Positions 48,266-64,000 of a stretch of 64,000 nt of DNA are shown here, in pieces. How positions within the stretch are numbered: position 1 is the stretch's first letter; each line of letters begins with the position of its first letter. This DNA comes from Candidatus Cloacimonadales bacterium. GTDB taxonomy: Bacteria; Cloacimonadota; Cloacimonadia; Cloacimonadales; JAIOQZ01. Under the pieces are notes generated by a model. It had not been told where the DNA came from. It did not search any database and saw only the letters and a program-made list of their open reading frames with translations. The position numbers were made by a program, and so were the translations under genes. Location: NCBI GenBank assembly GCA_963674825.1, contig OY771587.1, positions 3,552,001 through 3,616,000 on the forward strand, read 5' to 3'.

Positions 48266-49706
48266 GAGCTCTTGTAATCCTGATATATTTATCTCGAACA
48301 GAGCAAACAGACAGCGTTCATAGTATATCCGAGCCTGATGTAATGGCAGCAATTTACTCCATCCCTGAATAAAACCTTTGTTCACAACATCCCATTCTTT
48401 GTGCAATCCATCTTCTCTATAGAAGCGTAAAAGATGAAGTCCAAGCTCAATACTCATTTGTCGCACTTCTTTGCTAACTCTTGCATCGGAGATATACATC
48501 CACTTGTATTTTTTCCATGTACTTGCGAAAAAATCTATCTGTTCATTGTAGATTGGGCAAAGGCTCTTATCCATCCTCCATAATTATTCAAATGCCCAGT
48601 TTAAATCGATTCTACTGCTATTGTCAGCAATATTCCCATGAAACTGACACCATTCTTCTGTGAACATTCAGATCTTTTTCCGCACTTCTTCAGGGGCGAT
48701 AACCCATCCTGGATATGATTCGCGTTGAACTTTCCAAGCTTTCAGAGTGGTTTCAATTTGCTTTTCCTTGTCAGCATCTTTACCATGCTTTGGAGATAAG
48801 GGAGAAGAAGTCGTTGGCCAGTTAAGAGCTGCCTGAGAGTTATCTTTGGACTTCAGATATTCTAAAAACCTCATCAATCCCTTATAATGTTCATCCTCTC
48901 GAATATCGTTGCAATCAGCCATGTTGATTACGACAATATTCCGTGCCTCAAGAAGCTTTTGTTGAGCTATGGACAAATTAATAACACCAACCAGGAAGAT
49001 CTTGGGGGAATAATCTCTACCTAAATTGTCTCGTATCCAGCCAATCCAACTAAGAAAATTGGGATCATCCCCAGAGAAACCAATAAGACACAACGTATTT
49101 TCCAGCAAAGACTGTTGAACCATATTGACGAACGGGGCATTCTCTTTGGGGTATATCCGGTAGTCTTCTTCCGTGATCACAAAGGGTCTGATTGACGGAA
49201 AACTACCATGTAATTTCACGATACGAGGTTGCGAGGAATGTGTAATATCCTCCTTTGTTTTCACGATATCGTATCTGCGATCAAATACCTTCGCTGTTGC
49301 TCTTTCAAGCAAAGTGTCATAATTCGTAGTAAACACATCAGACCAGGGTAAATTCAATAGCTCCGTATGCAATTCAGATGGCTCGTATTCTTTATCTGAA
49401 ATCGCATCCTGTAGTAATTGATCGAGCGTTGGCCTCCCAAATGCAGCTTGAACTTCCTCAGCTAATTTCAGCACATTCAGATACTTGACTTGCTTCCCTG
49501 GATGATTCCTATAGACCTTCTCGTAAAATATATCCCCCAATTCTGCCCAATCGGGAAAGTTATTGCACATCTCGCTATTGGGTTGTCCGTTTTTTACTAA
49601 AGCCAGATCCTACCATTACAGCTGCATGCTCTGACCAAAGTCTTTCAGCAATCTCATCGAGATAAGGGCGTATATTATCGGCTACTTGTACATTTTGCTC
49701 ATCCAT
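48263..49706 (-). pseudogene. Dsr1-like defence-associated sirtuin pseudogene
   Basis: Start 49706 MDEQ...RPYLDEIAERLWSEHAAVMVGSGFSK; +1 frameshift in A6 run (49590-49595); TTNYDTLLE, KLHGS, IGFSGDDPNF; in-frame TGA 48668-70 and TAA 48584-86; truncated near 48265. Confidence 0.85.
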
Positions 49707-49723: not shown

Positions 49724-50122
49724 TTAGTTATTTAGGTTTAGAACATTAACGACATTATTGGAGAGATGATGAGATATCGAGCAATAATTACTGAGCAGCT
49801 TACGAAGTACTTCCAGCCTATCCCGCATCAACCCAAGCCAAATGCTGTGCTCTACCCCGTCATCGTAGTGGTCGAAGGCATTGCCGGTATTGTAGGGCGG
49901 ATCGATGTAGATGCACTTCACCTGCCCGGCGTATTCCTCTTCGAGAGCCTTGAGCGCGAGAAGGTTGTCCCCGTGGATGAGGATGTTGTCGAAGATGTCG
50001 TCCTGGGTCACGTGGTGCGGTGCGTGGTAACTGTATTGCGGGTTTTCGAGAAGGATGCGCGGCTCCAGCCGTGGCTTGTTCTCCTTCCCGATCCATGTCA
50101 GTTCGAGCTTTTGGTTGGGCAT
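49724..50122 (-). pseudogene. Truncated type III R-M Mod methyltransferase (N-terminal ~110 aa)
   Basis: KLELTWIGK, LIHGDNLLALKAL, CIYIDPPYNTG, WLGLMRDRL; ends without FxGxG motif or TRD. Confidence 0.88.
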
Positions 50123-50163: not shown

Positions 50164-51864
50164 TTAGCTTCTGATTCTTGTCAATGCAACACTGTATCCC
50201 ATCGAGCGAATTGCTTGTACCCTGCCAATTAGATCAATTTTCGCAAACAACGTCAATGTACCTGAGAAATTCTTCAATGTTGTGTCGGCATTTGCAGGTA
50301 TAGAATGTTTTTCATCGTAAATAGCAAATACAATGCATATCTCTTCCCTCATTGCGGATTTAAGATCTTTCAGTTGGTGCTTATCTTTCGCTGACAAATC
50401 TGCTTTTCCATCCAAATCCGAATTATGAACCTTATCTCTAAATTCACTGTGGTGATGATATTCTTGAATCGATAGTAAACCTTGAGAAAAGAGTTCTCTG
50501 AGTGACGCTCCTGAATCATGTTTTATATGAATCAAAAGCTGTTTGTTTACTTTTTCTCCGAGTAAATCACAGAATTCGATTGTATCAAAACCACCCACAG
50601 AGCGGACAAAATGCTTATGTAAAATCGTAAATTTCGTTGCGCAACTGCTGATGTAGTCGTCTTCCGTCTTGCATGCAGTCGTCCATGATGGCATCCCGAT
50701 TTCTGTCGGACTATAGCACTTAATGCCGTTGATCTCTTTATCTATCAATTGGATGAATGCCCTATTTGCTTGATACCATCGATTGCCAATTACAAAATAC
50801 GTTTCATTTTGATATGTGACATCCCCGCAAATGTACTCCGAAAGGAGTTTTCTTGGTGTTGAGGGTCGATCATCGGAATACTTACAAACAACCTGTATTT
50901 CGCCTAACTTAGCGTTTTGGTTCAGCGAAAGGTAATCCGATACTTTGGTCATTACCTCATCTGGATCGGAAGCCGATTCCTTCCATGGACCGTCATTGAT
51001 TCTAAACTCTTCGACCTGATCAGATAGAAATCCTGTTTCCATATCATCCAGATACAATTCCCCAAGCCTGCTACCACTTTTCACCATGTTGTGTAATGCC
51101 TGAACAAGGCTATTCACCAATCTCATGCGTGTTTTAGGGTCTATGAAATCAAGTTCGGGCAAGTCGTCCGACGTTTTGCCAGTATTCCAGATATTATCAA
51201 TATCGTAGATAAATTGATGCACCTCGTCAAGGCTCTTCTTGCCCGTAATTTGCAATGAATCACCAGCAATGATACTCCTCCCTATTTCGATATCTTTTCC
51301 CTTGTATTTATGCTTGATTGTTTTTTCGCTATTTGCCGGTATTGCTCGAATATGCGTGATAATTCTATGCAAGTTGTCTATATCACCTTTCGGCCTGTAG
51401 TTTCCCTTGAAAATCCGGTCGATGCTGTTCAATATTCCATGCGTCTCTTTCTGGTTTAATCCGCGTAAGTGCAAGCTACCTAATATCTTCTTTGCTAATG
51501 TGATGCCAAATCTTGGTTCATGGTACTTCTGCGCAGTTATAGCGTGGAATCCTGTTCCCCCTGTACAGGCATAGATATTGTTCCCAACCTTAATCAAATA
51601 AACGAATCCTGAAGATTTTACTTGTGGAGGGATTCCACCGAACTCTGACAGATCCACACCCTTTCCTTTAAACAAAGTGTACCAGGGAGCGTCATTATCT
51701 TTCTGTGTTTTGAAATACAGCTCAGAGTAGAACTCAGTATTATCGAAGTGAGCGACCTGCACAAAGCCAGGAAAAGATATCGTCTGAGAGTCAACATCTT
51801 GATTTAGTTTATAAAGCGTGATTTTCTTAGCAATGTTTTCAGATTTGTTTTTGTTCTCTGTCAT
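50164..51864 (-). CDS. DUF6119/TIGR04141-like protein with putative C-terminal nuclease domain
   Basis: TGGTGFHAI...EPRFG; YFVIGNRWY; IEFCDLL...LIHIK...ASLRELFSQG; TLFAKI; ATG 51864 after AGGAGG. Confidence 0.7.
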   Translation of the reverse strand: MTENKNKSENIAKKITLYKLNQDVDSQTISFPGFVQVAHFDNTEFYSELYFKTQKDNDAPWYTLFKGKGVDLSEFGGIPPQVKSSGFVYLIKVGNNIYACTGGTGFHAITAQKYHEPRFGITLAKKILGSLHLRGLNQKETHGILNSIDRIFKGNYRPKGDIDNLHRIITHIRAIPANSEKTIKHKYKGKDIEIGRSIIAGDSLQITGKKSLDEVHQFIYDIDNIWNTGKTSDDLPELDFIDPKTRMRLVNSLVQALHNMVKSGSRLGELYLDDMETGFLSDQVEEFRINDGPWKESASDPDEVMTKVSDYLSLNQNAKLGEIQVVCKYSDDRPSTPRKLLSEYICGDVTYQNETYFVIGNRWYQANRAFIQLIDKEINGIKCYSPTEIGMPSWTTACKTEDDYISSCATKFTILHKHFVRSVGGFDTIEFCDLLGEKVNKQLLIHIKHDSGASLRELFSQGLLSIQEYHHHSEFRDKVHNSDLDGKADLSAKDKHQLKDLKSAMREEICIVFAIYDEKHSIPANADTTLKNFSGTLTLFAKIDLIGRVQAIRSMGYSVALTRIRS

Positions 51865-51891
51865 TCTAGTCCTCCTGGGCATGGATGGTTT

Positions 51892-54747
51892 CTATTTTAT
51901 ATCCCACCTTACACTGAACAGCACCTCTTTCGAGGTCTGCTGAACCAGTTTATTCTCGATTTCTTTGATGAAATTGTCGCGTTTCCGATCGATATCATCC
52001 TGTGCATCAAACAGCGACCTTCTCTTCTGGCTTCTTTGGGTTTCGAGAGCCCGGAGCTTTCGCTGCCCTTCGAGCTTTTCTTCAAGGGTTGGCGAAAGGG
52101 TCGTTGCACGGCGCACTTCTCTGATTTCCCTGTCGATATCCTTGATATCCCTTTCGAGCTCGGATTTCAGGTCTTCCGCCCATTCGTCCAGCTTCATTGC
52201 CTCGGTATCGTAGAACTGGGTATTCCTTTTCTCAACCTCTTTCTGTATAGCTTCATACCGTCCCGTGAGGCGTTCGTGGCAGAACTCATCAAAGAGGATT
52301 TCGGTCAAATCCTGCACCATTGTGGCGGGGACGTCGAACATTCTTCGGGCAATTTCCGGATCAATGATTTCTCCGGCATCCGTGCAGCAATCGAGAACGA
52401 TGTATTCTTCTGTCACATTCATAGATTCGATTGTGAATAGCACTGCTCGCAGTACACCTGACCACCCGATGTAAGGTTCGAGAGACGTGATTTTACCCTC
52501 ATACTCGCTGAGGTGGAAGGAAATGGACGCTGGTTGTAATTCGCGCCTTGTTGCCCTTTTCAGAAGGTATTGCGCCATCGGATGTGAGGGTCTGTATAGC
52601 ATCGCATGACCGGATCTCCGCGGTAATTCGTACAAACCCAAGTCGAATTGTTTGCCGTCCGGATTTGAAAGCAATGTGAAGGATGACTCCGAGTTGAATT
52701 GCGCATGATCGCCCAATTCGATTTTCGTGAACCGTATCAGAAGCTTTTCGAACTTCGACAGGCATTCATTGGATCTTTTATCCCGGACTCGTAGCTTCTC
52801 CCTGACTTCATCGTCGAAGTTTTCCATCAACTTCTGACTCGTCTGCGTCATTTCATCATCGATTTCCTGGGACATCTCTTCACGGAGCTTAGCAAACGCT
52901 TGCTCGATCTCTTCCTCCGTTCTGCATTTCTGATAGATATCCACAATCCGTTTCTCGAAATCTACACCCGACTCAATTGAGCCAAGAACCTCGTCGCTCG
53001 ATCCGAATACACCTTCGAACAGCTTGAATTTCTCGGAGAGCAGTTCGAATACACGCTTATCAGCGGCGTTCTTGGTATTCAAAAAATTGACCACGACAAC
53101 ATCATGCTTCTGACCATAGCGATGGCAGCGACCGATCCTCTGTTCTACGCGCTGAGGATTCCAAGGCAGATCATAATTCACCACCAATGAGCAAAACTGC
53201 AAGTTGATACCCTCTGCACCGGCTTCGGTTGCAATCATGATTTTCCCTTCATCACGAAAATAATCTACGATTGCTGAGCGTTTGTCCGCTGTTCGACTCC
53301 CCGTAACTCGATCAGTACCTTTGTTTTTCTCTTTCCAATCCTGATAGATTGTCTTCGATCGTTCATCGTTGTTGGACCCGTTGAATAGAACGATTCCTTC
53401 AGAAAACGGGCTATTGGAAAGCAAATCGACCAAATAATTCTGCGTTCTTTTCGATTCGGTAAAGATGATTGCCTTCTGAGGTGCTCCAAATTCTTCAGCA
53501 TACTCAAACGCCCGTTGCAATACTTGAAGTAGGGATTGACCTTTTTCATTGATTTTGATCGATTCTGCCAAGTCACGGTATTCTCCTAGATCATCAATCT
53601 CCTTCTTGAGTGCAATGATATCGGAATCCGTTAGAACTTCATCCTGGGAATCCTCTTCCCATTCATCAGACTCTTCTGTGTATGATTCGAAATCTTCGGA
53701 CAATTCCTGAGCAATGATGTCCTGTGCTTCTTCGTGCCGATTCAACTTAGATAGAAGACGCTTTCTCATCGTATCCAGTGCACCGGCAATCGCGTAGGAT
53801 GAAGAAGCTAGTTGCTTCCTTAAAACCAGGATGATAAGTGTTCGTTGGCTGTTTGGTAAAGCCTGAAGGTTTTCTCGTCGTAGATACTCAGAAACGAGAT
53901 CATACAGCCTCATCTCTGTTTCGCTTGGTGTGAATTCTTGAAGCATGGGGTGCCGTTTGGTGTATTTGATATAAGGCTCCACCTGCCTGCGAAGTGTGCG
54001 ATGGCAGAATGGCTTGATTCGCAAACGCAGATGTTCGAATACTCCTTTGTCTCTTACCTTGGCATACCTGTCACGGAAGCTTCTGACGTCTCCAAATGCC
54101 TGGTCATCCAGAATACTTATCAATCCGTACAGTTCAAGGAGTGAGTTTTGCAAAGGTGTTGCTGTTAATAGTAATTTCTGACTACTTCGCAGAGTGTTTT
54201 TCAGCACGTTTCCGATCACGTTTGATGGTTTGTAAACATTGCGAAGTCTGTGCGCTTCGTCAATTACAACGAGATCCCATGGTATGCTTCGAACATCTTC
54301 AGCCTTCGACTTCGCGAAATGATAAGAACAAATGATGATCTTATCACTGCTGAATGGATTGATATTGCGCTTCTTCAGTATCTGGTTGTAGGTTTTTGAT
54401 TCTAAGATGGAAGAATCCAGGAAGAATTTATCCGCCAGCTCCTGGTACCACTGCTTCCTGAGATTTGCCGGTGTGATGATCAGGATTTTCCTCTTTCGCT
54501 CAGCCCATCGTTGAGAAATAACAAGCCCAGCCTCAATCGTTTTTCCCAAACCCACTTCATCGGCTAAGATTACACCTTTTGTGAGTGGAGAATGAAAAGG
54601 GAATAACGCGGCATCTATCTGGTGTGGATTCAGGTCGATCGTGGCATCAGCCAGAGTTCCTGTCATTTTCTCGAGACTATCAGATGCATATTGGCGCATC
54701 AACTCAGTAGCAAAAAGCTTGGAATGGTATTTCGTCTGTGCTTCCAT
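51892..54747 (-). CDS. SNF2-family helicase/ATPase (type III R-M associated type)
   Basis: ILADEVGLGKT, IDEAH, LLTATPLQN, AGAEGINLQ, YDLPWNP, QRIGRCHRYGQ; coiled-coil C-terminus. Confidence 0.92.
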   Translation of the reverse strand: MEAQTKYHSKLFATELMRQYASDSLEKMTGTLADATIDLNPHQIDAALFPFHSPLTKGVILADEVGLGKTIEAGLVISQRWAERKRKILIITPANLRKQWYQELADKFFLDSSILESKTYNQILKKRNINPFSSDKIIICSYHFAKSKAEDVRSIPWDLVVIDEAHRLRNVYKPSNVIGNVLKNTLRSSQKLLLTATPLQNSLLELYGLISILDDQAFGDVRSFRDRYAKVRDKGVFEHLRLRIKPFCHRTLRRQVEPYIKYTKRHPMLQEFTPSETEMRLYDLVSEYLRRENLQALPNSQRTLIILVLRKQLASSSYAIAGALDTMRKRLLSKLNRHEEAQDIIAQELSEDFESYTEESDEWEEDSQDEVLTDSDIIALKKEIDDLGEYRDLAESIKINEKGQSLLQVLQRAFEYAEEFGAPQKAIIFTESKRTQNYLVDLLSNSPFSEGIVLFNGSNNDERSKTIYQDWKEKNKGTDRVTGSRTADKRSAIVDYFRDEGKIMIATEAGAEGINLQFCSLVVNYDLPWNPQRVEQRIGRCHRYGQKHDVVVVNFLNTKNAADKRVFELLSEKFKLFEGVFGSSDEVLGSIESGVDFEKRIVDIYQKCRTEEEIEQAFAKLREEMSQEIDDEMTQTSQKLMENFDDEVREKLRVRDKRSNECLSKFEKLLIRFTKIELGDHAQFNSESSFTLLSNPDGKQFDLGLYELPRRSGHAMLYRPSHPMAQYLLKRATRRELQPASISFHLSEYEGKITSLEPYIGWSGVLRAVLFTIESMNVTEEYIVLDCCTDAGEIIDPEIARRMFDVPATMVQDLTEILFDEFCHERLTGRYEAIQKEVEKRNTQFYDTEAMKLDEWAEDLKSELERDIKDIDREIREVRRATTLSPTLEEKLEGQRKLRALETQRSQKRRSLFDAQDDIDRKRDNFIKEIENKLVQQTSKEVLFSVRWDIK

Positions 54748-55327: not shown

Positions 55328-55690
55328 ATGAAGAAATTTCTGATTGTCGATGATCAAGTTCTATATTTGAAGTCGCTGAAAGCTTTGTTCTCGAAGAACT
55401 ATAAGGTTGTAACGGCTTCTTCTTATGATGAAGCGATTGAGCAGTTACAGAATCCTGTTGATATCGCATTGATCGATATACGCCTTGATGAGGACGACGA
55501 GAATAATGCTGATGGGCTGAAATTGCTGAAGTGGATTCAGCAAAACAGCCCGTCAATCTCGTGCTTTACCATGAGTGCATACACGGATTTCGGATACACA
55601 GAGAAAGCGCTTTCATCAGGAGCCAGGTATTTCTTCAGGAAACCCATCGATATAAAAACGCTGACAGATATCATCAAGGAAAAGGGATAA
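55328..55690 (+). CDS. Stand-alone receiver-domain response regulator
   Basis: LIVDD, LIDIRL (phospho-Asp), DGL, MSA, RKP; RBS GAGG. Confidence 0.92.
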   Translation: MKKFLIVDDQVLYLKSLKALFSKNYKVVTASSYDEAIEQLQNPVDIALIDIRLDEDDENNADGLKLLKWIQQNSPSISCFTMSAYTDFGYTEKALSSGARYFFRKPIDIKTLTDIIKEKG

Positions 55691-56559
55691 TGCTACAACA
55701 GCTGTTGGTGAATGGTTTTATCCTTGGGTCTGTCTATTCGATGATGGCTTTAGGATTTGCTCTGATTTACAATACGACTCACATTTTCCATATTGCATAT
55801 GCAGGTGTATATATTGTCAGTCCATACCTTTTCATGGCTTGTGTGGCCATGGTTGGGCTTAATCCTGTCTTATCGTTTGTTATCGCTCTCCTCCTGTCTG
55901 TCATCGTAAGCCTGTCAATAGAACGAATCGCGTATTATCCTCTTGAAAAACGACGCAGTCCATCGACAGTTATCATGATCAGTTCATTGGCGTGTATGAC
56001 AATCATTATCAATGTGATTGCTATGATCTTCGGAAATGAAACCAAAATCATCAATTCCTCGATATCGGGTTCGCTGGTAATCAATGACTTGATTATCACG
56101 CGCCCTCAGTATATTCAGCTGTCAGTATCATTATTCATCATTGCAGGAATTATTGCGCTGATCAACAGAACTGGGATCGGGATTGCGACGCGCGCGCTCA
56201 GTAATAATAAATTACTCTGTCAGGTGATGGGGTTAAAGGTTTATCGCTTTCGCTTGCTCTTGTTTGCTTTAAGCGGATTTATTGCAGCCGTTGGTGGGTT
56301 ACTGATTGCTTATGATGTCGGGATTGATCCTTATGTTGGTATGTCGATGCTGCTCGTATCAATCGTAGCGGTGATTATCGGCGGAGTTGGAAACTTCTAT
56401 GGTCCAATTCTGGGCGGTTTTATTCTTGGGATTCTTCAGGCTTTGACGATTGGGTTTTTCTCTTCACGTTGGCAAAATGTGGTTACGTTTGCCCTGCTGA
56501 TTATCTTCTTGCTTCTCAGACCTCAGGGTTTGCTTGGTGAGAAGCAGAGGATGGCCTGA
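55690..56559 (+). CDS. livH: HAAT (branched-chain amino acid type) ABC permease
   Basis: QQLLVNGFILGSVYSMMALGFALIY; IIGGVGN; RPQGLLG; ATG 55690 overlaps receiver TAA. Confidence 0.88.
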   Translation: MLQQLLVNGFILGSVYSMMALGFALIYNTTHIFHIAYAGVYIVSPYLFMACVAMVGLNPVLSFVIALLLSVIVSLSIERIAYYPLEKRRSPSTVIMISSLACMTIIINVIAMIFGNETKIINSSISGSLVINDLIITRPQYIQLSVSLFIIAGIIALINRTGIGIATRALSNNKLLCQVMGLKVYRFRLLLFALSGFIAAVGGLLIAYDVGIDPYVGMSMLLVSIVAVIIGGVGNFYGPILGGFILGILQALTIGFFSSRWQNVVTFALLIIFLLLRPQGLLGEKQRMA

Positions 56560-57431
56560 TGAACTACGTCATGCATCTTGTGGTGATGATCAACATCTAC
56601 ATCGTTCTGACCACGAGTTCAAATCTACTTGTGGGCATGACGAATCTCCTTTCACTCGGACAGGCAGCTTTCTATGGTTTGGGTGCATATTTTGTTGTGT
56701 TGGGTCTCGTTGTGCTGCATCTTCCGTTTTTACCGACTCTATTGCTTGCCATGCTTTTAAATGCAGGCTTCGGGTTGTTGCTCGCATTGCCTTCGATACG
56801 TCTTAAGGGCGATTACTTTGTTTTTGCTACTCTGGGATTTCAGCTGATAACTTACACGATATTGTATAACTGGGTTTCGCTAACTCGTGGTCCTTATGGC
56901 GTTCCTGGAATACCTGCCCCAAAACTGCTGGGCGTGCTGGAGATATCCGGGCTTGTTCAATACTGTATTTTGAGTCTTGTATTGGCATTTCTGGTGATTT
57001 TGGTTTTCAATCGGCTGATAAAATCTCCATTTGGCCGAGTATTGAAGGGTATAAGGGAAGACGAGTTATCTGTTTTATCACTCGGTCGAAACGTGACGAT
57101 GTATAAGATTGAAGTATTTGTTATCACCTGTGCATTCATCACGATATCTGGTTTTTTGTATGCAACATACGTTACCTACATTGATCCAACAAGCTTTACG
57201 CTTGATGAATCGATTTTTATCCTTTCGGCTCTGCTTATCGGTGGAACGGGCAATCTGAAAGGGCCTATCGTCGGTGCAGTTTTTGTTGTCCTTCTTCCTG
57301 AGGTGATTCGGTTTCTCGGCTTACCCGAAGGAATCGCGGCCAATCTCAGGCAGATCATTTATGGATTCTTCCTGTTGGTGTTGATGTACTTCAGACCGCA
57401 AGGTATAGCTGGAAATTATCAGGTGAAATGA
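56559..57431 (+). CDS. livM: HAAT ABC permease
   Basis: LSLGQAAFYGLGAY, RLKGDYF, SPFGRVLKGIREDE, RPQG. Confidence 0.88.
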   Translation: MNYVMHLVVMINIYIVLTTSSNLLVGMTNLLSLGQAAFYGLGAYFVVLGLVVLHLPFLPTLLLAMLLNAGFGLLLALPSIRLKGDYFVFATLGFQLITYTILYNWVSLTRGPYGVPGIPAPKLLGVLEISGLVQYCILSLVLAFLVILVFNRLIKSPFGRVLKGIREDELSVLSLGRNVTMYKIEVFVITCAFITISGFLYATYVTYIDPTSFTLDESIFILSALLIGGTGNLKGPIVGAVFVVLLPEVIRFLGLPEGIAANLRQIIYGFFLLVLMYFRPQGIAGNYQVK

Positions 57432-58267
57432 TGAACGAAGATATACTGCAAATCCAGGATTTGTCGAAGGCTTACAGCCGTCAGGTTGTCAATATCGATG
57501 GTGTCGAGACAAACGAGCGATACAATATCATTTTCGATCTGGATCTTGATATCCCTCAGAATACAATAACTGCGCTAATTGGAGGAAACGGAGCGGGTAA
57601 GACAACTCTATTCAACATTATAAGTGGAATAACAGAAGCGGATAGCGGCTCAATCATGTATTGCACAAAGAACCAGAACAGCTGGATCAGCCTGCTGAAT
57701 CAACCCCCTCACAGGATGAAAAAGATCGGTATTGGACGTCTTTTTCAAGATAATCACATATTTCTTCAAATGTCCGTCCTTGAAAACATGATGATCGCAG
57801 ATAGCAATGAATGGGGAGAGATGCCATTTGTATCCTTATTCAATCGTAAAAAAAACAGGGAAATCGAGCAATTTCGCATGAAGAAGGCTAAGGACACATT
57901 TGAGTTGTTGTTTGGCAGAGACAATCCGTTCTGGCAGAAAAGAGATGATCTCGCTTCAACATTGTCCTATGGTCAGCAACGGCTTCTGGGACTTGCTCGT
58001 TTGTTGATGGGAAAATACCGGCTCGTCTTGTTGGATGAGCCTACGTCCGGTGTTAATCCCATGCTGGCAAATACGATATGCTCTGTTATCAAGAAGATGG
58101 TCGATGAGGAAGGAATCACCGTGTTCCTGATCGAGCATAACATGAAGATCGTGGAAGAAATAGCTGATTATTGCAGCTTCATGAGCCACGGGAAAATAAC
58201 TGCCTTTGGTTATCCGAGAGATGTCATCGGTGATGAAACCGTACGGAAAACGTATCTGGGGATGTGA
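57428..58267 (+). CDS. livG: HAAT ABC ATPase
   Basis: GGNGAGKTTLFN, GIGRLFQ, LSYGQQR, LDEPTSGVNP, IEHNM. Confidence 0.88.
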   Translation: MMNEDILQIQDLSKAYSRQVVNIDGVETNERYNIIFDLDLDIPQNTITALIGGNGAGKTTLFNIISGITEADSGSIMYCTKNQNSWISLLNQPPHRMKKIGIGRLFQDNHIFLQMSVLENMMIADSNEWGEMPFVSLFNRKKNREIEQFRMKKAKDTFELLFGRDNPFWQKRDDLASTLSYGQQRLLGLARLLMGKYRLVLLDEPTSGVNPMLANTICSVIKKMVDEEGITVFLIEHNMKIVEEIADYCSFMSHGKITAFGYPRDVIGDETVRKTYLGM

Positions 58268-58974
58268 TGATGGATGCTAAGAACGTGATGAAAATCCGTG
58301 ATCTTTACGCTGGATACGTAAAAGGTAACCATATTCTTCAGGGCGTGAATCTGGATGTTCATGAGAATGAGATCATCGCGATCGTCGGCCAGAACGGAGC
58401 AGGGAAATCGACCCTCGCGAAGGCGATTATGGGTTTTATTCCTGAACGCTCCGGAGCGATCGAGTTAATGTCTCATGCTGCTCCTCACAAGGATATCGTT
58501 GGGGCCATCGGCTTTCTGATGCAAAACGACAATGTTTTCGACAACATGACGATATCCGAAAACTTGCGTTTCGCGGGTAGAAAGCTTGACAAAAACGCTT
58601 TCACAAACGAATTGAATACTGTTCGGGAGCTTTTCGACGTGCTGCTAAAAGATGGTTATGCACGTCGCAAGGCATCCTATCTAAGTGGCGGAGAGAAGCA
58701 TCAACTTGCACTCGCAATGGTTATGCTTCAAAATCCTGCACTCTACGTCTTGGACGAGCCATCTGCCGGTCTTTCACCCGACAACCGGAAGAAGATATTC
58801 GCGAGCATCCGTGAGTTGCGCTCCCTGTCCGGGAAAAGCATTATCCTGATCGAACAGAACGTCAACGAAGCGATCAAAATCGCCGACCGCGTCGCTCTGC
58901 TTAAGCTTGGTAAAATCGATAAAATAGAATACACAAACAAAATACAAAACATTGATGAGTTCTTCTGGAAATAG
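58264..58974 (+). CDS. livF: HAAT ABC ATPase
   Basis: GQNGAGKST, LSGGEK, LDEPSAGLSP, IEQN. Confidence 0.88.
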   Translation: MMMDAKNVMKIRDLYAGYVKGNHILQGVNLDVHENEIIAIVGQNGAGKSTLAKAIMGFIPERSGAIELMSHAAPHKDIVGAIGFLMQNDNVFDNMTISENLRFAGRKLDKNAFTNELNTVRELFDVLLKDGYARRKASYLSGGEKHQLALAMVMLQNPALYVLDEPSAGLSPDNRKKIFASIRELRSLSGKSIILIEQNVNEAIKIADRVALLKLGKIDKIEYTNKIQNIDEFFWK

Positions 58975-58993: not shown

Positions 58994-60154
58994 ATGAGAA
59001 ACAAAACTATTGTTTCAATTCTCGCAATACTTTTCTTGGTAGCGTTGTTTGCAGGATGCGCGAAGAAGGAACCCAAGATTACGGTTGCATGTAATCTGCC
59101 ATTAACGGGTGATTTTGCTACATACGGTACAGCAATACAGAACGGTGCGATGCTGGCGCTTGATGATCTGGAAAAAGAAAACCCTGAATTACGTAATCGA
59201 ATAGAATTTCTTTGGGGCGATAATGCTGGAAAGGCAAACCAGACAGTTAACCTTCTCAATCAGCAATTGATGCAAAATCCAGATATCTACGTATCCGGAG
59301 TGAAGCCACAGACGATGGCGATTTTCGATAAATTGCACGAAATGGGATTACCGCATTTTGTGTGGATCTTTGATGCATTTATCACTCAGAAAGGCGATGA
59401 TGTGTTTAGAACATGGGTGAATTATAAATATGAGCCGAAAATGTATCTGAATTATGCTAAGCAATTTCTTGATGATAAGCTTAATGTGGAGGCTAGACAA
59501 TCACCGAGATTGGCAATTATTTACGTAAATTTCCCGCATGTATTGGAAGAGGTTGAGGAAATAATGAAGCCAGAACTTCAGGAAATGGGAATTAACGGAG
59601 ACAATCTATTCATCGAGAACTATAACTGGGAAGAAAAAGATTTCAAAAACATTGTTACAAAGCTTTCGAAGTTCAATCCTGATCTCATCATCATTAACGG
59701 TTTCCAGGGGAATCTTGTTGGATTGACAAAAGCCTTGAGGACATATCGCATGATAAAGGACGGGAATGTTATCGCAACATATGATATGCTTGATGCAGCT
59801 GAGATACTCACACCGGATGAACTTGAAGGTATTCGCGTTGTTGTTCCTGCTTACAACGTTGATAACTCAAAACAATTGGAAGATTGGAAGAGTGATTATT
59901 CGGAGAAGTATGGAAAATCACCGCTGTATACAGATGCCTATGCTTATGATATGGCTATGATTATATCCGACGCTATTTCCCGGACTGAAATGCCTTACTC
60001 CAAGGAGAAGTGGTGCTCAGCAATAATGGAAACCGATATAGAGGGACTTACCGGTAGATTGAAGTTTGATGACACTGGAGATCTTCTGCTCTCATTAAAG
60101 ATTGCTGTGTTTAAAGATGGCAATCTTGTTGAAGATGTTTCAATCAAGCAATAG
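58994..60154 (+). CDS. HAAT ABC substrate-binding lipoprotein (LivJ/K-like)
   Basis: RBS AAGGAGG, lipobox FAGC; LPLTGDFATYG; AYAYD; GLTGRLKFD. Confidence 0.85.
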   Translation: MRNKTIVSILAILFLVALFAGCAKKEPKITVACNLPLTGDFATYGTAIQNGAMLALDDLEKENPELRNRIEFLWGDNAGKANQTVNLLNQQLMQNPDIYVSGVKPQTMAIFDKLHEMGLPHFVWIFDAFITQKGDDVFRTWVNYKYEPKMYLNYAKQFLDDKLNVEARQSPRLAIIYVNFPHVLEEVEEIMKPELQEMGINGDNLFIENYNWEEKDFKNIVTKLSKFNPDLIIINGFQGNLVGLTKALRTYRMIKDGNVIATYDMLDAAEILTPDELEGIRVVVPAYNVDNSKQLEDWKSDYSEKYGKSPLYTDAYAYDMAMIISDAISRTEMPYSKEKWCSAIMETDIEGLTGRLKFDDTGDLLLSLKIAVFKDGNLVEDVSIKQ

Positions 60155-60167
60155 TGCGGAGGCATGT

Positions 60168-61058
60168 TTGAAAGCCCATGACATAACAATGTTCGATGAT
60201 TATGTGGAGTTTGACTCTATAAAATTGAAGGTTGATCCCGTCAATCGTAAGTGTCCGGTAAAACATGACAATGTTATGGCCATCTTTTTTGAGGAGCAGC
60301 CCATCATGTGGCTGCTCCTTAAGGAGAAAATCGAAAACAAATTGCAAGAATTAGGTCATGTCAAAGAAGCAGTTGATTTTCTTGATGTCGGTTGTGGTTC
60401 AGGTTTTTGGGGGGTGATGCTTCGAAAGCATTTCAATTGCTCTGTTATTGCGTTAGACAAACTGGAAAGAGCTGTGAGGCTATGCAGAGAGAATGCAAAG
60501 CTGAACAATGTCACATTGCATGTTGTTCATAGCACTTATGAACAATGGGCACAGGGACATAGCAAAGCAAAAATTATTGGTTTATATCCTCCATATCATA
60601 TATATCCTCCAGCTACAGAAGATATGATACCTTTTCACGCAAGGGGTGGATCAAATGGAACAGAAGAATTCTATTCTCAGTTAAAAATTTCTTCAGATGT
60701 GTTGGTTGAAGATGGTATGGTGATTTTCAACATGATGTCAATAGGGGATGAGGCTGGTCCAGAGTATGTAAAAAGATACAAGGAATTATTGGGTCGGAAT
60801 GCCTCTCTTTCATATACAAATATATTTCAGCCCTTAGACACAAGTTATTTTTTAAGAAAACTTTACGGTCGGAATCACATGGAGTTTCAAGTGCGTATTG
60901 CCCAGGGGTTTCCGAAAATATATTACACAATTGGCACGATAACGAATGATAATAGGGGGCAAGTTACGTGTGAACCATTAAAAATTGATTTGACAACAAG
61001 AAGTTGGGCTGATCGAATTGCTTTACATAAGGAGATAAATTCACATGTCTCCTTGTAA
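60168..61058 (+). CDS. Class I SAM methyltransferase, HemK/PrmC-like
   Basis: LDVGCGSG, ALD...AV...ENAKLN, LYPPYH (NPPY-like), GGSNG; TTG 60168 after GGAGG. Confidence 0.8.
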   Translation: MKAHDITMFDDYVEFDSIKLKVDPVNRKCPVKHDNVMAIFFEEQPIMWLLLKEKIENKLQELGHVKEAVDFLDVGCGSGFWGVMLRKHFNCSVIALDKLERAVRLCRENAKLNNVTLHVVHSTYEQWAQGHSKAKIIGLYPPYHIYPPATEDMIPFHARGGSNGTEEFYSQLKISSDVLVEDGMVIFNMMSIGDEAGPEYVKRYKELLGRNASLSYTNIFQPLDTSYFLRKLYGRNHMEFQVRIAQGFPKIYYTIGTITNDNRGQVTCEPLKIDLTTRSWADRIALHKEINSHVSL

Positions 61059-61071
61059 AGGAGTATTGACT

Positions 61072-64000
61072 ATGCCTAAGGTCAGATCACAGAGGGGTTA
61101 TGTTGAAGAGCTGAAACGTATTAATCTTGTTCGAGCTAAGACTTGTGATGTTAAAGACTCTTTCGTTCTATCTGGCGCTTCATTATTAACGGATATTATT
61201 CATCAGTCTTTCGACGCTTCTTTTTTTTGGTTTGATTTTAGTTTGGTTACTTCTGGTATGGAAGATGATATTCTTTCAGATTACCATGTTATCAGTACCG
61301 AATCCAACGATCCGATGATTCAAGGGATTTATAAGAGGGCTCAAGAGATTCAATTTGCTCGCAGTTTAATGACATGTTATAATGGGATGAGAGATTCAGG
61401 TCAGGCAATATATTATAATACGAGTTTTTTCGCCAATTCGTCGGACTATGTGTTTTATATTAGTGATAGCAGTTCCACTGAATACAAGGAAATGGCGAAT
61501 TCCAGCGTGGTGAAATTAGTTGAAAACGATAGTAAATTAAATGCATCGGATAACGCTTTTATCGATATTAATAACAATACGCTTTTTGCAGACTTCAGGC
61601 TCAATGTTGATCGGCGATTTTTTGAGAATTATATGCCAGATCAAGCCAGTAAGGAAAACAATGATAGCAAGGTAAATGCTAATATCGATGAGTTGGGGCA
61701 CTTGTTTCACTACATTATTAAATCACGCGTATTTAAAGTCGCAGATCTAAAAACCTACCTTTTAAGTATTCCCATACTTGGGGCGAATGCTCAGAAAGAA
61801 CATGAAGAAACACTGAGGGGTACAGGGGCTCTCTTTGTAATGTTTTCACCTGCCGAAGGAAAGACGGTGGGTAGAGAAGAATTAACCAGGGTCGCCGATG
61901 AGCTAAGTTACGCTGTGAAGGACATATCTCTAAACTACCTTTTCTATTCTGGAATGATGCTGAAGTTAAGGTTGCTTAAGCAGTTGATAAAAGGTGCAGT
62001 ACAGACCATCCTCATCGATTCCTACGCGCACAACATCAGTGCGCACAGCCTTGCGGCGTTGTCGTGGTGGTTCGAGAAGCGACGCAAGATGCTGGACAGA
62101 CGTTTCAACGGTTTCCTGGAAGACGGAGAAGTGGTGGAGAAAGGGAAACTAACGGGTTTGCAGCCCGAATCAATCGAGAAACTTCAGGACAATCAGGATA
62201 TCTTCGACTACTATGCGATTCAGGGACTTGAAGATGGCACGTACAACGGCAACTTCTATTCTCTTCATGACTACATGCAATTTATGCCGGATGAAGCGTT
62301 TAAAGAATTCCTGGCATTCAATAGGCTTGTTCACTATAAAAGCAGGAAATATAAACTGCGATTCCCCGCTCCACTTGATTATGCCCTTGCACCGCTATTC
62401 CGGTTCTTGCGTGACAAGGGTGCGTTTTGGAGTGGGGTGACTCGGGATCATGCGTATGGAGGGGAATCGAAGACTCTGTATCAGATTCTTTGGAACGATT
62501 TCGCCAACAATCCTCTTTATCTTGGTACTATCGCGCGGACAGAGGGTGTGGACAAGGTTAATATCGATCTGCATGTTATGCATGAAGACAAATGGAAGCG
62601 GGGCAGATTCCTTACCATCGATTTGTCGCTGATCGATTACGAAGACCATCTTATGGATGGAAATGGAAGCCATACCGAAGGTAAAGGGGAACTGGAGAAT
62701 CACAATCGCAAAGAATGCAAGTGTAACTGCTTTGAACACAAAGCGGACTCTGCTGGAAACAATGACGATGACAAGGTGGATCTGAAGGAACTCAAATGTG
62801 AAGATGAAAGATTCGAAAACTGTGAGGAAAAAGGTAAGTCGAGAAAGCACTGGCTTAAGCCTGAGAAATACTCGAAGTATGCACTTGTAAGGTTTGGGCC
62901 TTGTTTTGAATGCTTCAGGAAAATTCTTGATACCGATGAATACCGGGTTTATTTGCCGGGTGGTATCGTTGGTGAACATGCCATCTTCACCATTCTCGAG
63001 AACACGCTTCGCAATATCAAACATTACAAAGATAAAGAGACTGTTGAAGATGTTCAGAAAAATGGGCTCAGTTTCCATATCTCAATCGAGCCGGAGAACC
63101 TTGAAGTCGATAAGGGGAATGAAGGAAAGTCAACAAACCGGAAGCAAGAGCTATTCAAGATTGGTACCTGGCTCGGGCATGAGATTAGAAACAACAAGGA
63201 AAATCAAGAGACTATTGATGAGTTAGTTAATCGAGTAACTGCCCTTTCGAAAGAATCGATCATTGATAGAGAGTCGAGTCCAAGAATGGGCGGGAATTCT
63301 CAGGATAAAATATGTGCTGCAATGCTGTTGAACAATAACTTCAGTCACGTTGAATCCCAAAATGAGTCTGAACGGGATAAAAAGTATTATCCTTGGATTC
63401 ATTATACCAATGGTTTAATGGGCGCCGAAGGGAATTATTTGCAGAAGTACTTCTATGTCTGGCGCAGTGAGGTATTTTACTTCCTGGATGACATCAAGAA
63501 GATCGAGAAAGAAAATATATCCAGGTTCAAGTTCCTGGGCATTCCTGATTCACCGGATTCGGATGCGCTTTTCAAGGCCGCGCGTGAAAATGGTGTCGTG
63601 AGGATATTGAAAGGTGATAGGTCTGTCCTTGCAAAAGGTGAGCATGAGTCGTATGATGAGCACATATCAAGGCTGTATTCGCTTTGGTTTAAAGAGTGGT
63701 TTGGTATGGGGAATTGGGCCATCAGTTACTTTAAGGATGATGATAAATGTGCGTTAGACTATTTAGACGGTAATGTTTCTTGGGTCAGCTACGGTGAAAT
63801 AGATAATGTGCGAGATCGTTTACGAACCAAAATTCGCTTTTCACATGGCGGTTCCGATGAAGACACGAGCTGCAATGTGAGAAGTCACGGTGTTTTTTGG
63901 AGTCATTATTTCTCAGAAGTAGCCAAGAAGGATCCGGTGGAGCTGGAAAAGATAGGGGCTGATTATACGGCAGCGGGAAAAGCTATAAGCATGTACGATA
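61072..64000 (+). CDS. Very large divergent histidine-kinase-like protein, 3' end beyond window (not in ORF track)
   Basis: RBS AAAGGAG, ATG 61072; manual translation gives 976 codons with no stop; H-box-like DSYAHNISAHSL, N-box-like HAIFTILENTLRNIKH, G-box-like PRMGGNSQDKICAAML. Confidence 0.8.
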   Translation, partial: MPKVRSQRGYVEELKRINLVRAKTCDVKDSFVLSGASLLTDIIHQSFDASFFWFDFSLVTSGMEDDILSDYHVISTESNDPMIQGIYKRAQEIQFARSLMTCYNGMRDSGQAIYYNTSFFANSSDYVFYISDSSSTEYKEMANSSVVKLVENDSKLNASDNAFIDINNNTLFADFRLNVDRRFFENYMPDQASKENNDSKVNANIDELGHLFHYIIKSRVFKVADLKTYLLSIPILGANAQKEHEETLRGTGALFVMFSPAEGKTVGREELTRVADELSYAVKDISLNYLFYSGMMLKLRLLKQLIKGAVQTILIDSYAHNISAHSLAALSWWFEKRRKMLDRRFNGFLEDGEVVEKGKLTGLQPESIEKLQDNQDIFDYYAIQGLEDGTYNGNFYSLHDYMQFMPDEAFKEFLAFNRLVHYKSRKYKLRFPAPLDYALAPLFRFLRDKGAFWSGVTRDHAYGGESKTLYQILWNDFANNPLYLGTIARTEGVDKVNIDLHVMHEDKWKRGRFLTIDLSLIDYEDHLMDGNGSHTEGKGELENHNRKECKCNCFEHKADSAGNNDDDKVDLKELKCEDERFENCEEKGKSRKHWLKPEKYSKYALVRFGPCFECFRKILDTDEYRVYLPGGIVGEHAIFTILENTLRNIKHYKDKETVEDVQKNGLSFHISIEPENLEVDKGNEGKSTNRKQELFKIGTWLGHEIRNNKENQETIDELVNRVTALSKESIIDRESSPRMGGNSQDKICAAMLLNNNFSHVESQNESERDKKYYPWIHYTNGLMGAEGNYLQKYFYVWRSEVFYFLDDIKKIEKENISRFKFLGIPDSPDSDALFKAARENGVVRILKGDRSVLAKGEHESYDEHISRLYSLWFKEWFGMGNWAISYFKDDDKCALDYLDGNVSWVSYGEIDNVRDRLRTKIRFSHGGSDEDTSCNVRSHGVFWSHYFSEVAKKDPVELEKIGADYTAAGKAISMYD

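Follow-up and report, generated by a model that had tools for sequence, protein, structure and literature searches.

What does the long kinase gene at the 3' end of this DNA detect, and does its product still work as a kinase? The window, a 64,000-nt stretch of contig OY771587.1 from a Candidatus Cloacimonadales bacterium (assembly GCA_963674825.1, positions 3,552,001 to 3,616,000), ends within a forward-strand gene for a predicted, atypical hybrid histidine kinase of 1155 amino acids (aa), which occupies 61072..64000 and has its stop codon at 64537-64539. Coordinates above 64,000 continue the window's numbering throughout, and the contig position (G000:C1) is the window position plus 3,552,000. 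We found that the kinase belongs to a family that sits inside a ligand-swapping signaling cassette. The main finding resides in the C-terminal 180 aa of the kinase and in its operon, both missed in an earlier sequence-only reading of the window. Family and cassette are unnamed: neither was described in the openly available full text searched, although the supplements of conflict-system papers could list the family.

The operon runs in the order receiver, four LIV-type transporter genes, binding lipoprotein, methyltransferase, kinase, the partner genes F1 and G250, an NtrC-type activator, F6 and two membrane proteins, and most neighboring genes abut or overlap. The four transporter genes (55690..58974, + strand) encode the two permeases and two ATPases of a LIV-type ATP-binding cassette (ABC) importer, putatively LivH/M/G/F-like; Walker A and signature motifs are visible in the sequence, and the genes form the conserved left flank of an exchangeable block. 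The left part of the block itself is a lipoprotein solute-binding protein (LivK-like; 58994..60154, +; PF13458, E 3e-23). Its enzyme slot holds an S-adenosylmethionine (SAM)-dependent, HemK-like methyltransferase with a YPPY motif (60189..61058, +), whose best matches are HemK/MJ0882-like and which ends 13 nt before the kinase. The right part is the variable N-terminal sensor region of the kinase (aa 1 to about 306; 61072..61990, +), likely a GAF domain.

Relatives of this kinase are numerous. Residues 300-800 had 362 homologs among 7997 candidates scored, and a 65-row profile retrieved 328 clusters (50% identity) at E<=1e-30, 463 at 1e-10 and 1110 at 1e-3; the homologs and the clusters at the strictest threshold place the kinase frame far beyond chance. 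Upstream of the kinase at 159 loci, we found a LivK-like gene in 36, a polyprenyl-synthetase-like gene in 80 and other genes in six, while 28 had too little DNA and nine had no long kinase open reading frame (ORF). The enzyme slot lies beside LivK, mostly between LivK and the kinase, or is fused to the kinase. It contains class I methyltransferases, radical-SAM enzymes with B12 or BATS domains, HMGL-like proteins, HpcH aldolase, ThiF, a short-chain dehydrogenase/reductase (SDR) with a pyridoxal phosphate (PLP) enzyme, an FAD oxidoreductase with an NAD-synthase-like protein, and isocitrate-dehydrogenase-like or polyprenyl-synthetase-like proteins. An enzyme was present at 33 of the 36 LivK loci, including two weak matches and two assigned by homology to a scanned gene; two of the remaining loci had no Pfam match in the slot and one was cut off.

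The slot changes together with the sensor. We compared 32 loci (the 36 LivK loci minus three near-duplicates and one without a slot) in 496 pairs: sensor and slot were both similar in 11 pairs, the sensor only in none, the slot only in one, and neither in 484. Pairs with similar sensors thus shared their enzyme in 11/11 cases, compared to 1/485 of the other pairs. Median LivK identity was 64% within modules and 25% between them; the corresponding values were 43% and 39% for the kinase core and 69% and 65% for LivM. The core identities of L091 and L095 are inflated by truncated sequences, and the co-variation table and DNA comparison were used in their place. The cores of L007 and L099 are 88% identical and carry unrelated modules, and the module of each recurs next to a distant core (L002, L084). 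L013 and L017 likewise combine close cores with unrelated modules. In a FastTree phylogeny of the cores, seven same-module groups or pairs were non-sister and three were sister, and several sister cores carried different modules.

Comparison of DNA sequences located the edges of the exchange. Identity ended at or just inside the livK start in three locus pairs and resumed before the codon of the H-box His, by 42 nt in L017/L013, 58 nt in L099/L007 and 66 nt in L082/L095. The block bounded by these two breakpoints therefore contains all three parts that might contact a ligand and nothing else. At L005 and L183, flanks of 85-91% identity surround different modules, and the kinases belong to this family and to the sister family described below. 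The binding protein, the enzyme and the sensor end of the kinase are swapped as one block between conserved flanks, and we infer that these three parts have a common ligand.

The sequence-only reading had proposed an ORF of more than 976 aa. The frame proved to be real and longer than seen, running from the ATG at 61072, with AAAGGAG upstream, to a stop codon 539 nt past the window (span 61072-64539). Extension of the ORF revealed no stop codon that had been missed, as the frame is open past the window end, and an independent contig and assembly, possibly from the same sample, showed 0 differences across 60000-68000. All motifs quoted earlier are in frame at the residues given: LLSIPILG..GTGALFVMF (residues 230-257), AVQTILIDSYAHNISAHSLAAL (H320 at codon 62029, H325 at codon 62044), FLRDKGAFWSGVTRD and DFANNPLYLGTIA, CKCNC (62716-62730), CFEC (62902-62913), LPGGIVGEHAIFTILENTLRNIKH carrying N644 and N648, and PRMGGNSQDKICAAML starting at residue 737.

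The proposal of an atypical GHKL/HisKA-type kinase gained support from an AlphaFold model (mean predicted local distance difference test score, pLDDT, 72; predicted template modeling score, pTM, 0.75), in which a GHKL fold is predicted. When residues 300-800 or so of the model were compared with known structures, all 50 matches listed were histidine kinases or related GHKL kinases and phosphotransferases (DHp-CA or CA), the best being 9qq6 (Z 9.6, root-mean-square deviation, rmsd, 3.4, 171 residues aligned). Foldseek alone gave no match at E<=0.001 for this model or for that of the GAF-subfamily sensor described below. The protein is accordingly modeled, and predicted, to be a soluble hybrid kinase with the histidine-kinase fold. 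Its DHp region (61991..62445, +) comprises an H-box helix with D316, S317, H320, N321 and H325, a variable insert at about 343-435 and a second helix at 436-458; in the model, helices 268-319/324-342 and 436-458 form a helical hairpin with the conserved His that aligns to DHp-CA structures. The Bergerat-fold (CA) domain (aa 464-800; 62461..63471, +) contains the N-box E643/N644/R647/N648/K650/H651, L701 at the G1 Asp position and the lid G740-G741-x-x-Q744-D745-K746-x-C748.

Conservation was assessed in 246 distinct cores, after 17 of 290 rows without the H-box pattern were dropped and identical rows merged. H320, N321 and H325 occur in 246/246, a value partly fixed by the motif used for row selection, and they are also invariant in an unselected 115-row alignment. 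E643, R647, K650 and H651 are present in 246/246, N648 in 243, N644 in 237, and G740, G741, Q744 and C748 in 245 each. The H320-to-N648 distance of 328 residues agrees with the unusually long spacing of about 320 noted earlier (family median 266, range 187-440, n = 243), and is long because the DHp hairpin and the CA domain each carry a variable insert. The lack of a canonical DxGxG, likewise noted, extends to the whole family: the G1 Asp is absent, with Leu in 197 and Ile in 47 of the 246 rows. L701 aligns with the G1 Asp kept by a distant sister family, named here SHNIGSH (L172, L181-L183), which is homologous in its H-box, its N-box and the domain at its C-terminus (hhalign probability 97%, E 7e-12), shows the same importer-enzyme-kinase layout at 4/4 loci inspected, and likewise has no Pfam match in its kinase core. 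In contrast to the present family, it keeps the G1 Asp, a full N-box (RNxAKH) and a longer lid; the G2 lid GGxxQDK is invariant here, though two residues shorter. One sister-family locus, L181, has an NMT1-type importer and a SLOG-like domain at the kinase N-terminus.

The N-terminus had been described as GAF-like by pattern, and this description held for one subfamily and more weakly for the protein itself. In the prenyltransferase-linked subfamily, the N-terminus forms a single family (154/245 rows), and its sensor is predicted to adopt a GAF fold: the model has a pLDDT of 82.5 and matches GAF structures with Z 9.1, 8.9 and 8.4 (best match 3eea, Z 9.1, rmsd 3.8, 145 aligned). For residues 1-300 of the present kinase we rate a GAF fold as no more than likely, given that they have no homolog (none among 3458 candidates), low model confidence and weak profile support; a strand-strand-helix element appears at 219-290, again with low confidence. 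The sensor alignments matched no consistent Pfam family. A crude hydropathy window test detected no transmembrane helix in this kinase (maximum 1.44), and 14/246 family members reached 2.0 (highest 2.15); a kinase with no predicted transmembrane helix fits the need for an importer. At the other end, the C-terminal domain (aa about 983-1155; 64018-64536, +) carries D989, T/S1081, K/R1123-P1124 and an invariant H1038. The last 180 aa of the protein appear receiver-like by the order of strands and helices together with D989, T/S1081 and the K/R-P pair.

The remaining operon genes, all on the + strand, include candidate phosphorelay partners. Leftmost is a single-domain response regulator of 120 aa (55328..55690; PF00072, E 4e-19) with an intact acidic pocket, Asp, Ser and Lys. 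Downstream of the kinase are F1 (64536-65385), G250 (65380-66123; 247 aa), a predicted phosphotransferase whose H128 is conserved in 90/90, the NtrC-type sigma-54 activator (66104-67498), the receiver-containing F6 (67507-69324; 605 aa) and the membrane proteins (69321-71114 and 71124-71459). G250 had no Pfam family, and the F1 alignment matched no consistent one. Local hhalign comparisons with receivers, covering the kinase middle region, F1, G250 and the F6 N-terminus, gave nothing significant apart from the F6 receiver. Among 91 loci with enough downstream DNA, F1 was found in 83, G250 in 80, the NtrC-type gene in 75 and F6 in 33, and many Saprospiraceae copies have the same flanking genes. 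The genome encodes rpoN; two patterns for the sigma-54 promoter consensus found none in 54000-73000, and promoter scans performed at chance level.

On balance, we favor the interpretation that the locus is a quorum-sensing-like cassette for a small-molecule signal, centered on the kinase. The sensing end is swapped together with the enzyme and the binding protein, which makes a private small molecule the likely signal for the kinase. Synthesis of this molecule, or its last step, would fall to the adjacent methyltransferase, and uptake into the cytoplasm to the binding protein and LIV-type ABC transporter; there the N-terminal, probably GAF, domain of the kinase would bind it. Ligand binding would then switch the phosphorylation of H320, and phosphate would pass via the Asp-bearing receivers and the invariant G250 His to the sigma-54 activator and F6.

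Several observations weigh against this interpretation. Neighboring genes can travel together by linkage, and the locus pairs are not independent, so that the p-value of the co-variation test is overstated; we therefore place weight on the individual counter-examples, such as L007 and L099. No exporter was seen in the cassette. The slot enzyme is fused to the kinase at 7/36 LivK loci; in such a fusion a self-made signal would be short-circuited, and conversion of an imported molecule is an equally good fit. In the polyprenyl-synthetase-like partner (F3), the first Asp-rich motif is degenerate (mostly HNQILD) and the second reads NDxxD. In the sensor of this kinase, pLDDT is under 50 for most of residues 1-217; the N-terminus scored 8.8 bits on a leave-one-out profile, with 1/500 shuffles higher, gave no significant alignment to the GAF-subfamily sensor (E 0.13) and was not detected by the subfamily profile. 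The nucleotide pocket is remodeled relative to the sister family (G1 Asp to Leu/Ile, N-box one residue shorter, lid two shorter), and the residue after H320 is Asn (N321) rather than acidic, with the invariant D316 lying four residues before the His. In the C-terminal domain, profile alignment places H1038 on the phospho-acceptor Asp position, which is His in 239/239 ungapped rows, and the receiver fold falls below significance (hhalign E 0.063; the ESM lead is OKR_DC_1_N, 0.88). Finally, F1 has an in-frame TGA in this genome (65082-65084; L001:6082-6084), and this copy of the cassette may therefore be impaired. The TGA falls after residue 182, the frame and profile match run on for about 100 codons, and the letters are identical in the independent contig, which makes assembly error an unlikely cause; the codon is either a nonsense change or a site of readthrough.

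The polyprenyl-synthetase-like gene deserves separate mention. It is found, for example, at L054:2570-3931 and is fused to the kinase in P0168, and it possibly performs a new reaction on a terpene-synthase fold. At L042, L044, L049, L079, L108, L109 and L144, a stand-alone sensor-end-like gene of 130-270 aa lies between the prenyltransferase-like gene and the kinase, and at L056 such a gene lies instead between the NtrC-type gene and the kinase; its product is a possible signal sink or co-sensor.

Lsr, the uptake system for autoinducer-2 (AI-2), combines an ABC importer and binding protein with a modifying enzyme and an intracellular sensor. By analogy, an outside molecule, supplied by another organism or by the environment, could be imported here, converted by the enzyme to the active ligand and read by the GAF kinase. 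We regard this import-convert-sense route, the main alternative, as possible but rather unlikely. The co-swapping data fit it equally, the enzyme-kinase fusions and the lack of a visible exporter favor it, and radical-SAM CxxxCxxC and methyltransferase motifs are kept in several of the fused proteins. In the larger subfamily (80/159), however, the kinase follows a prenyltransferase-like gene with no LivK upstream, which suggests a diffusible product made by the cell, and the many unrelated chemistries found between conserved flanks resemble private dialects rather than a fixed cue.

A question independent of the choice between a self-made signal and import-convert-sense is whether catalysis is altered. 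The protein could be a pseudokinase, as the sequence-only reading had also allowed, or a phosphatase-only scaffold in the same cassette, signaling by conformation or by receiver dephosphorylation. Replacement of the G1 Asp in 244/246 rows, the deletions in N-box and lid relative to the sister family and the His in place of Asp in the C-terminal domain would all agree with this. We nevertheless think it unlikely: at overall identities of about 30-45%, the relatives retain H320, N648, R647, E643, G740, G741, Q744, D745 and K746 almost without exception. DD/D is intact in the partner receivers, G250 preserves its His, and no other kinase gene was seen in the cassette.

The surroundings of the operon would suit a role in anti-phage defense or conflict, set off by infection and with the enzyme and importer in accessory roles. 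The operon lies in a low-GC island (0.40-0.43 compared to 0.496), preceded on the - strand by remnants of a defense island: a 300-aa Dsr2-like SIR2 fragment (48668-49570), a DNA methylase fragment (49724-50122), a DUF6119 gene (50164-51882) and a DrmD-like SNF2 helicase (51892-54747). A truncated tyrosine-integrase-like gene (71973-72857; L001:12973-13854) closes the island on the right. The kinase is also patchily distributed, being present in 1/40 relatives of this genome and 0/3 of the same genus, and its nearest ESM feature cluster is HisKin-conflict (0.90). Furthermore, effector-type domains occur downstream at many loci: F6 relatives located after the activator carry leucine-rich repeats (LRR) with EAD11, TIR, caspase or CHAT domains (such relatives or neighbors occur at L010, L015, L032, L038, L041, L059 and L066), and other loci have receiver-HD-CE, deaminase, asparaginase or vWA genes. 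The F6 of this locus had no effector-type match in the Pfam scan. A primary role of this kind seems improbable, since PADLOC had no match for the kinase, F1, G250 or F6, the hidden Markov model (HMM) of HisKin-conflict (PF22561) did not match, the part that varies is the ligand-input side and the flanking genes are common to many Saprospiraceae copies. An anti-phage or conflict role can coexist with a quorum-sensing-like input, as its output.

An importer, an enzyme and an NtrC-type regulator follow ordinary catabolic logic, and the operon could on that basis be a nutrient-utilization cluster in which importer, first catabolic enzyme, sensor and sigma-54 activator serve a food molecule. Some slots do hold aldolase, dehydrogenase or PLP enzymes. 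This seems quite improbable, as most slots hold SAM-consuming methyltransferases, radical-SAM, ThiF, NAD-synthase-like or prenyltransferase-like proteins, each locus has one to three enzymes and no full pathway, and downstream receivers are fused to LRR, EAD11, TIR, caspase, CHAT or HD-CE domains.

The Cys-rich insert of the CA domain, taken together with C611/C614 (62626..62913, +), had suggested a metal or redox sensor. Seven Cys lie in this region of the kinase. Among the 59 closest relatives, C611 and at least two insert Cys occur together in 25, neither in 23 and one only in 11; this recurring three-Cys pattern makes a subclade metal site possible, and judged by the pattern the cluster may be such a site rather than a family-defining one. 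Metal or redox sensing through the insert is very improbable, and as a family trait it finds no support: 182/243 relatives have no Cys in the insert region, 181 of 186 more distant relatives have neither feature, insert length varies between 11 and more than 150 aa, and the model has low confidence at residues 532-580.

We compared the cassette with known systems. As far as the available texts describe comQXP and phcBSR, it works like these and like Lsr, but has no peptide gene, no membrane sensor and no fixed enzyme class. Lsr shares with it an importer, binding protein, modifying enzyme and intracellular sensor; its sensor is a repressor, whereas here a histidine kinase relay is present and the chemistry is polymorphic. 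As in staphylococcal agr, a signal enzyme adjoins a kinase whose N-terminal sensor varies and whose cytoplasmic core is conserved, and the co-variation of enzyme and sensor N-terminus between conserved flanks that marks such pherotype cassettes is present here. Both agr and ComQXPA have membrane sensors, in contrast to the soluble GAF-type sensor predicted here; in addition, the importer's binding protein swaps too, and the enzyme changes between unrelated superfamilies.

ComQXPA has the same adjoining arrangement: the available text of PMC4008528 describes Bacillus comQXP pherotypes with a variable ComP N-terminus and ComQ as an isoprenyl transferase, comparable to the polyprenyl-synthetase-like neighbor in one subfamily here, and its census reports no comQXPA outside Firmicutes. 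Its regulator is of LuxR type, whereas the one here is a sigma-54 activator. A ComX-like precursor peptide was sought and not found, with no conserved small ORF in 77 enzyme-kinase gaps, several of them under 20 nt. In Ralstonia, PhcB and PhcS group by signal type independently of phylotype, according to the available text of PMC11960443. By layout and description, phcBSR is similar in placing a methyltransferase signal synthase in an operon with the sensor kinase; it differs in its fixed enzyme class and LysR-type output, and the same text describes no importer, in contrast to the importer, changing enzyme and sigma-54 activator found here.

Class I histidine kinases (NifL 9qq6, GanS 6swk, HK853 5uht and CckA 5idj; Z 9.6-8.2) share the DHp His helix followed by a Bergerat fold with the N-box Asn. 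The present family instead has about 190-440 aa and two inserts between H and N boxes, Asn at H+1 and a second His at +5, no G1 Asp, a shortened N-box and lid, and a His-substituted receiver-like tail. HisKin-conflict kinases with iREC, described as retron-associated in the available text of PMC13712802 and exemplified by L165, are alike in pairing a divergent kinase with atypical receivers. We rejected membership in that family, as the PF22561 HMM matched neither in the Pfam scan nor at the kinase gene in a genome-wide scan (E<=1), and L165 has different motifs, about 410 aa and an adjoining reverse transcriptase. One sister-family partner had a sub-threshold iREC match. The available portions of PMC7159879 and PMC8195603 mention receivers in conflict systems and do not mention this cassette.

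A wider claim, which we advance tentatively, is that chemical-dialect cassettes are widespread in Bacteroidota, Ignavibacteria, Cloacimonadota and others. In these, binding protein, signal-making enzyme and GAF sensor would be swapped as a block across about ten enzyme families, implying dozens of small-molecule signals. The kinase that reads them would lack the Asp that binds adenine and might use a different nucleotide; its output would go to sigma-54 transcription and, at many loci, to modules of immunity or death (TIR, caspase, CHAT and EAD11). If true, each locus supplies an enzyme, a binding protein and a receptor that belong together, and the loci jointly list such triplets for the signaling molecules of bacteria that are mostly uncultured and for which no quorum sensing of this kind is described. 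Pherotype-style polymorphism, familiar from peptides, would then also include non-peptide chemistry. In Saprospiraceae-type loci, immune-type effectors would be linked to a density or cue signal, and the family would reveal whether loss of the adenine-binding Asp leaves a GHKL kinase functional.

Library searches with the kinase returned little: no Pfam family at E<=0.1, one spurious NCBIfam row (E 0.07) and nothing useful from a PDB sequence search. Searched viral contigs and plasmids contained no relative. Most named carriers belong to Saprospiraceae or other Bacteroidota, to Ignavibacteria, Cloacimonadota or Aminicenantes, and the prenyltransferase-linked form occurs in the cultured species Flavilitoribacter nigricans and Haliscomenobacter hydrossis; in one phylum sample, 3/301 genomes scored, namely the present one, one distant homolog and one spurious match. 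Several Saprospirales genomes (L054, L062, L066) have two kinase copies within about 10 kb, and at L148:7951-9339 a reverse transcriptase gene lies directly upstream of a family kinase. L007 carries a full LivK-radical SAM-kinase cassette on an 8.3-kb contig labeled Promethearchaeota archaeon, which may be misbinned or transferred. The kinases of L051 and L052 are 99.8% identical on contigs labeled Ignavibacteriaceae and Bacteriovoracaceae, respectively, reflecting either misbinning or recent transfer.

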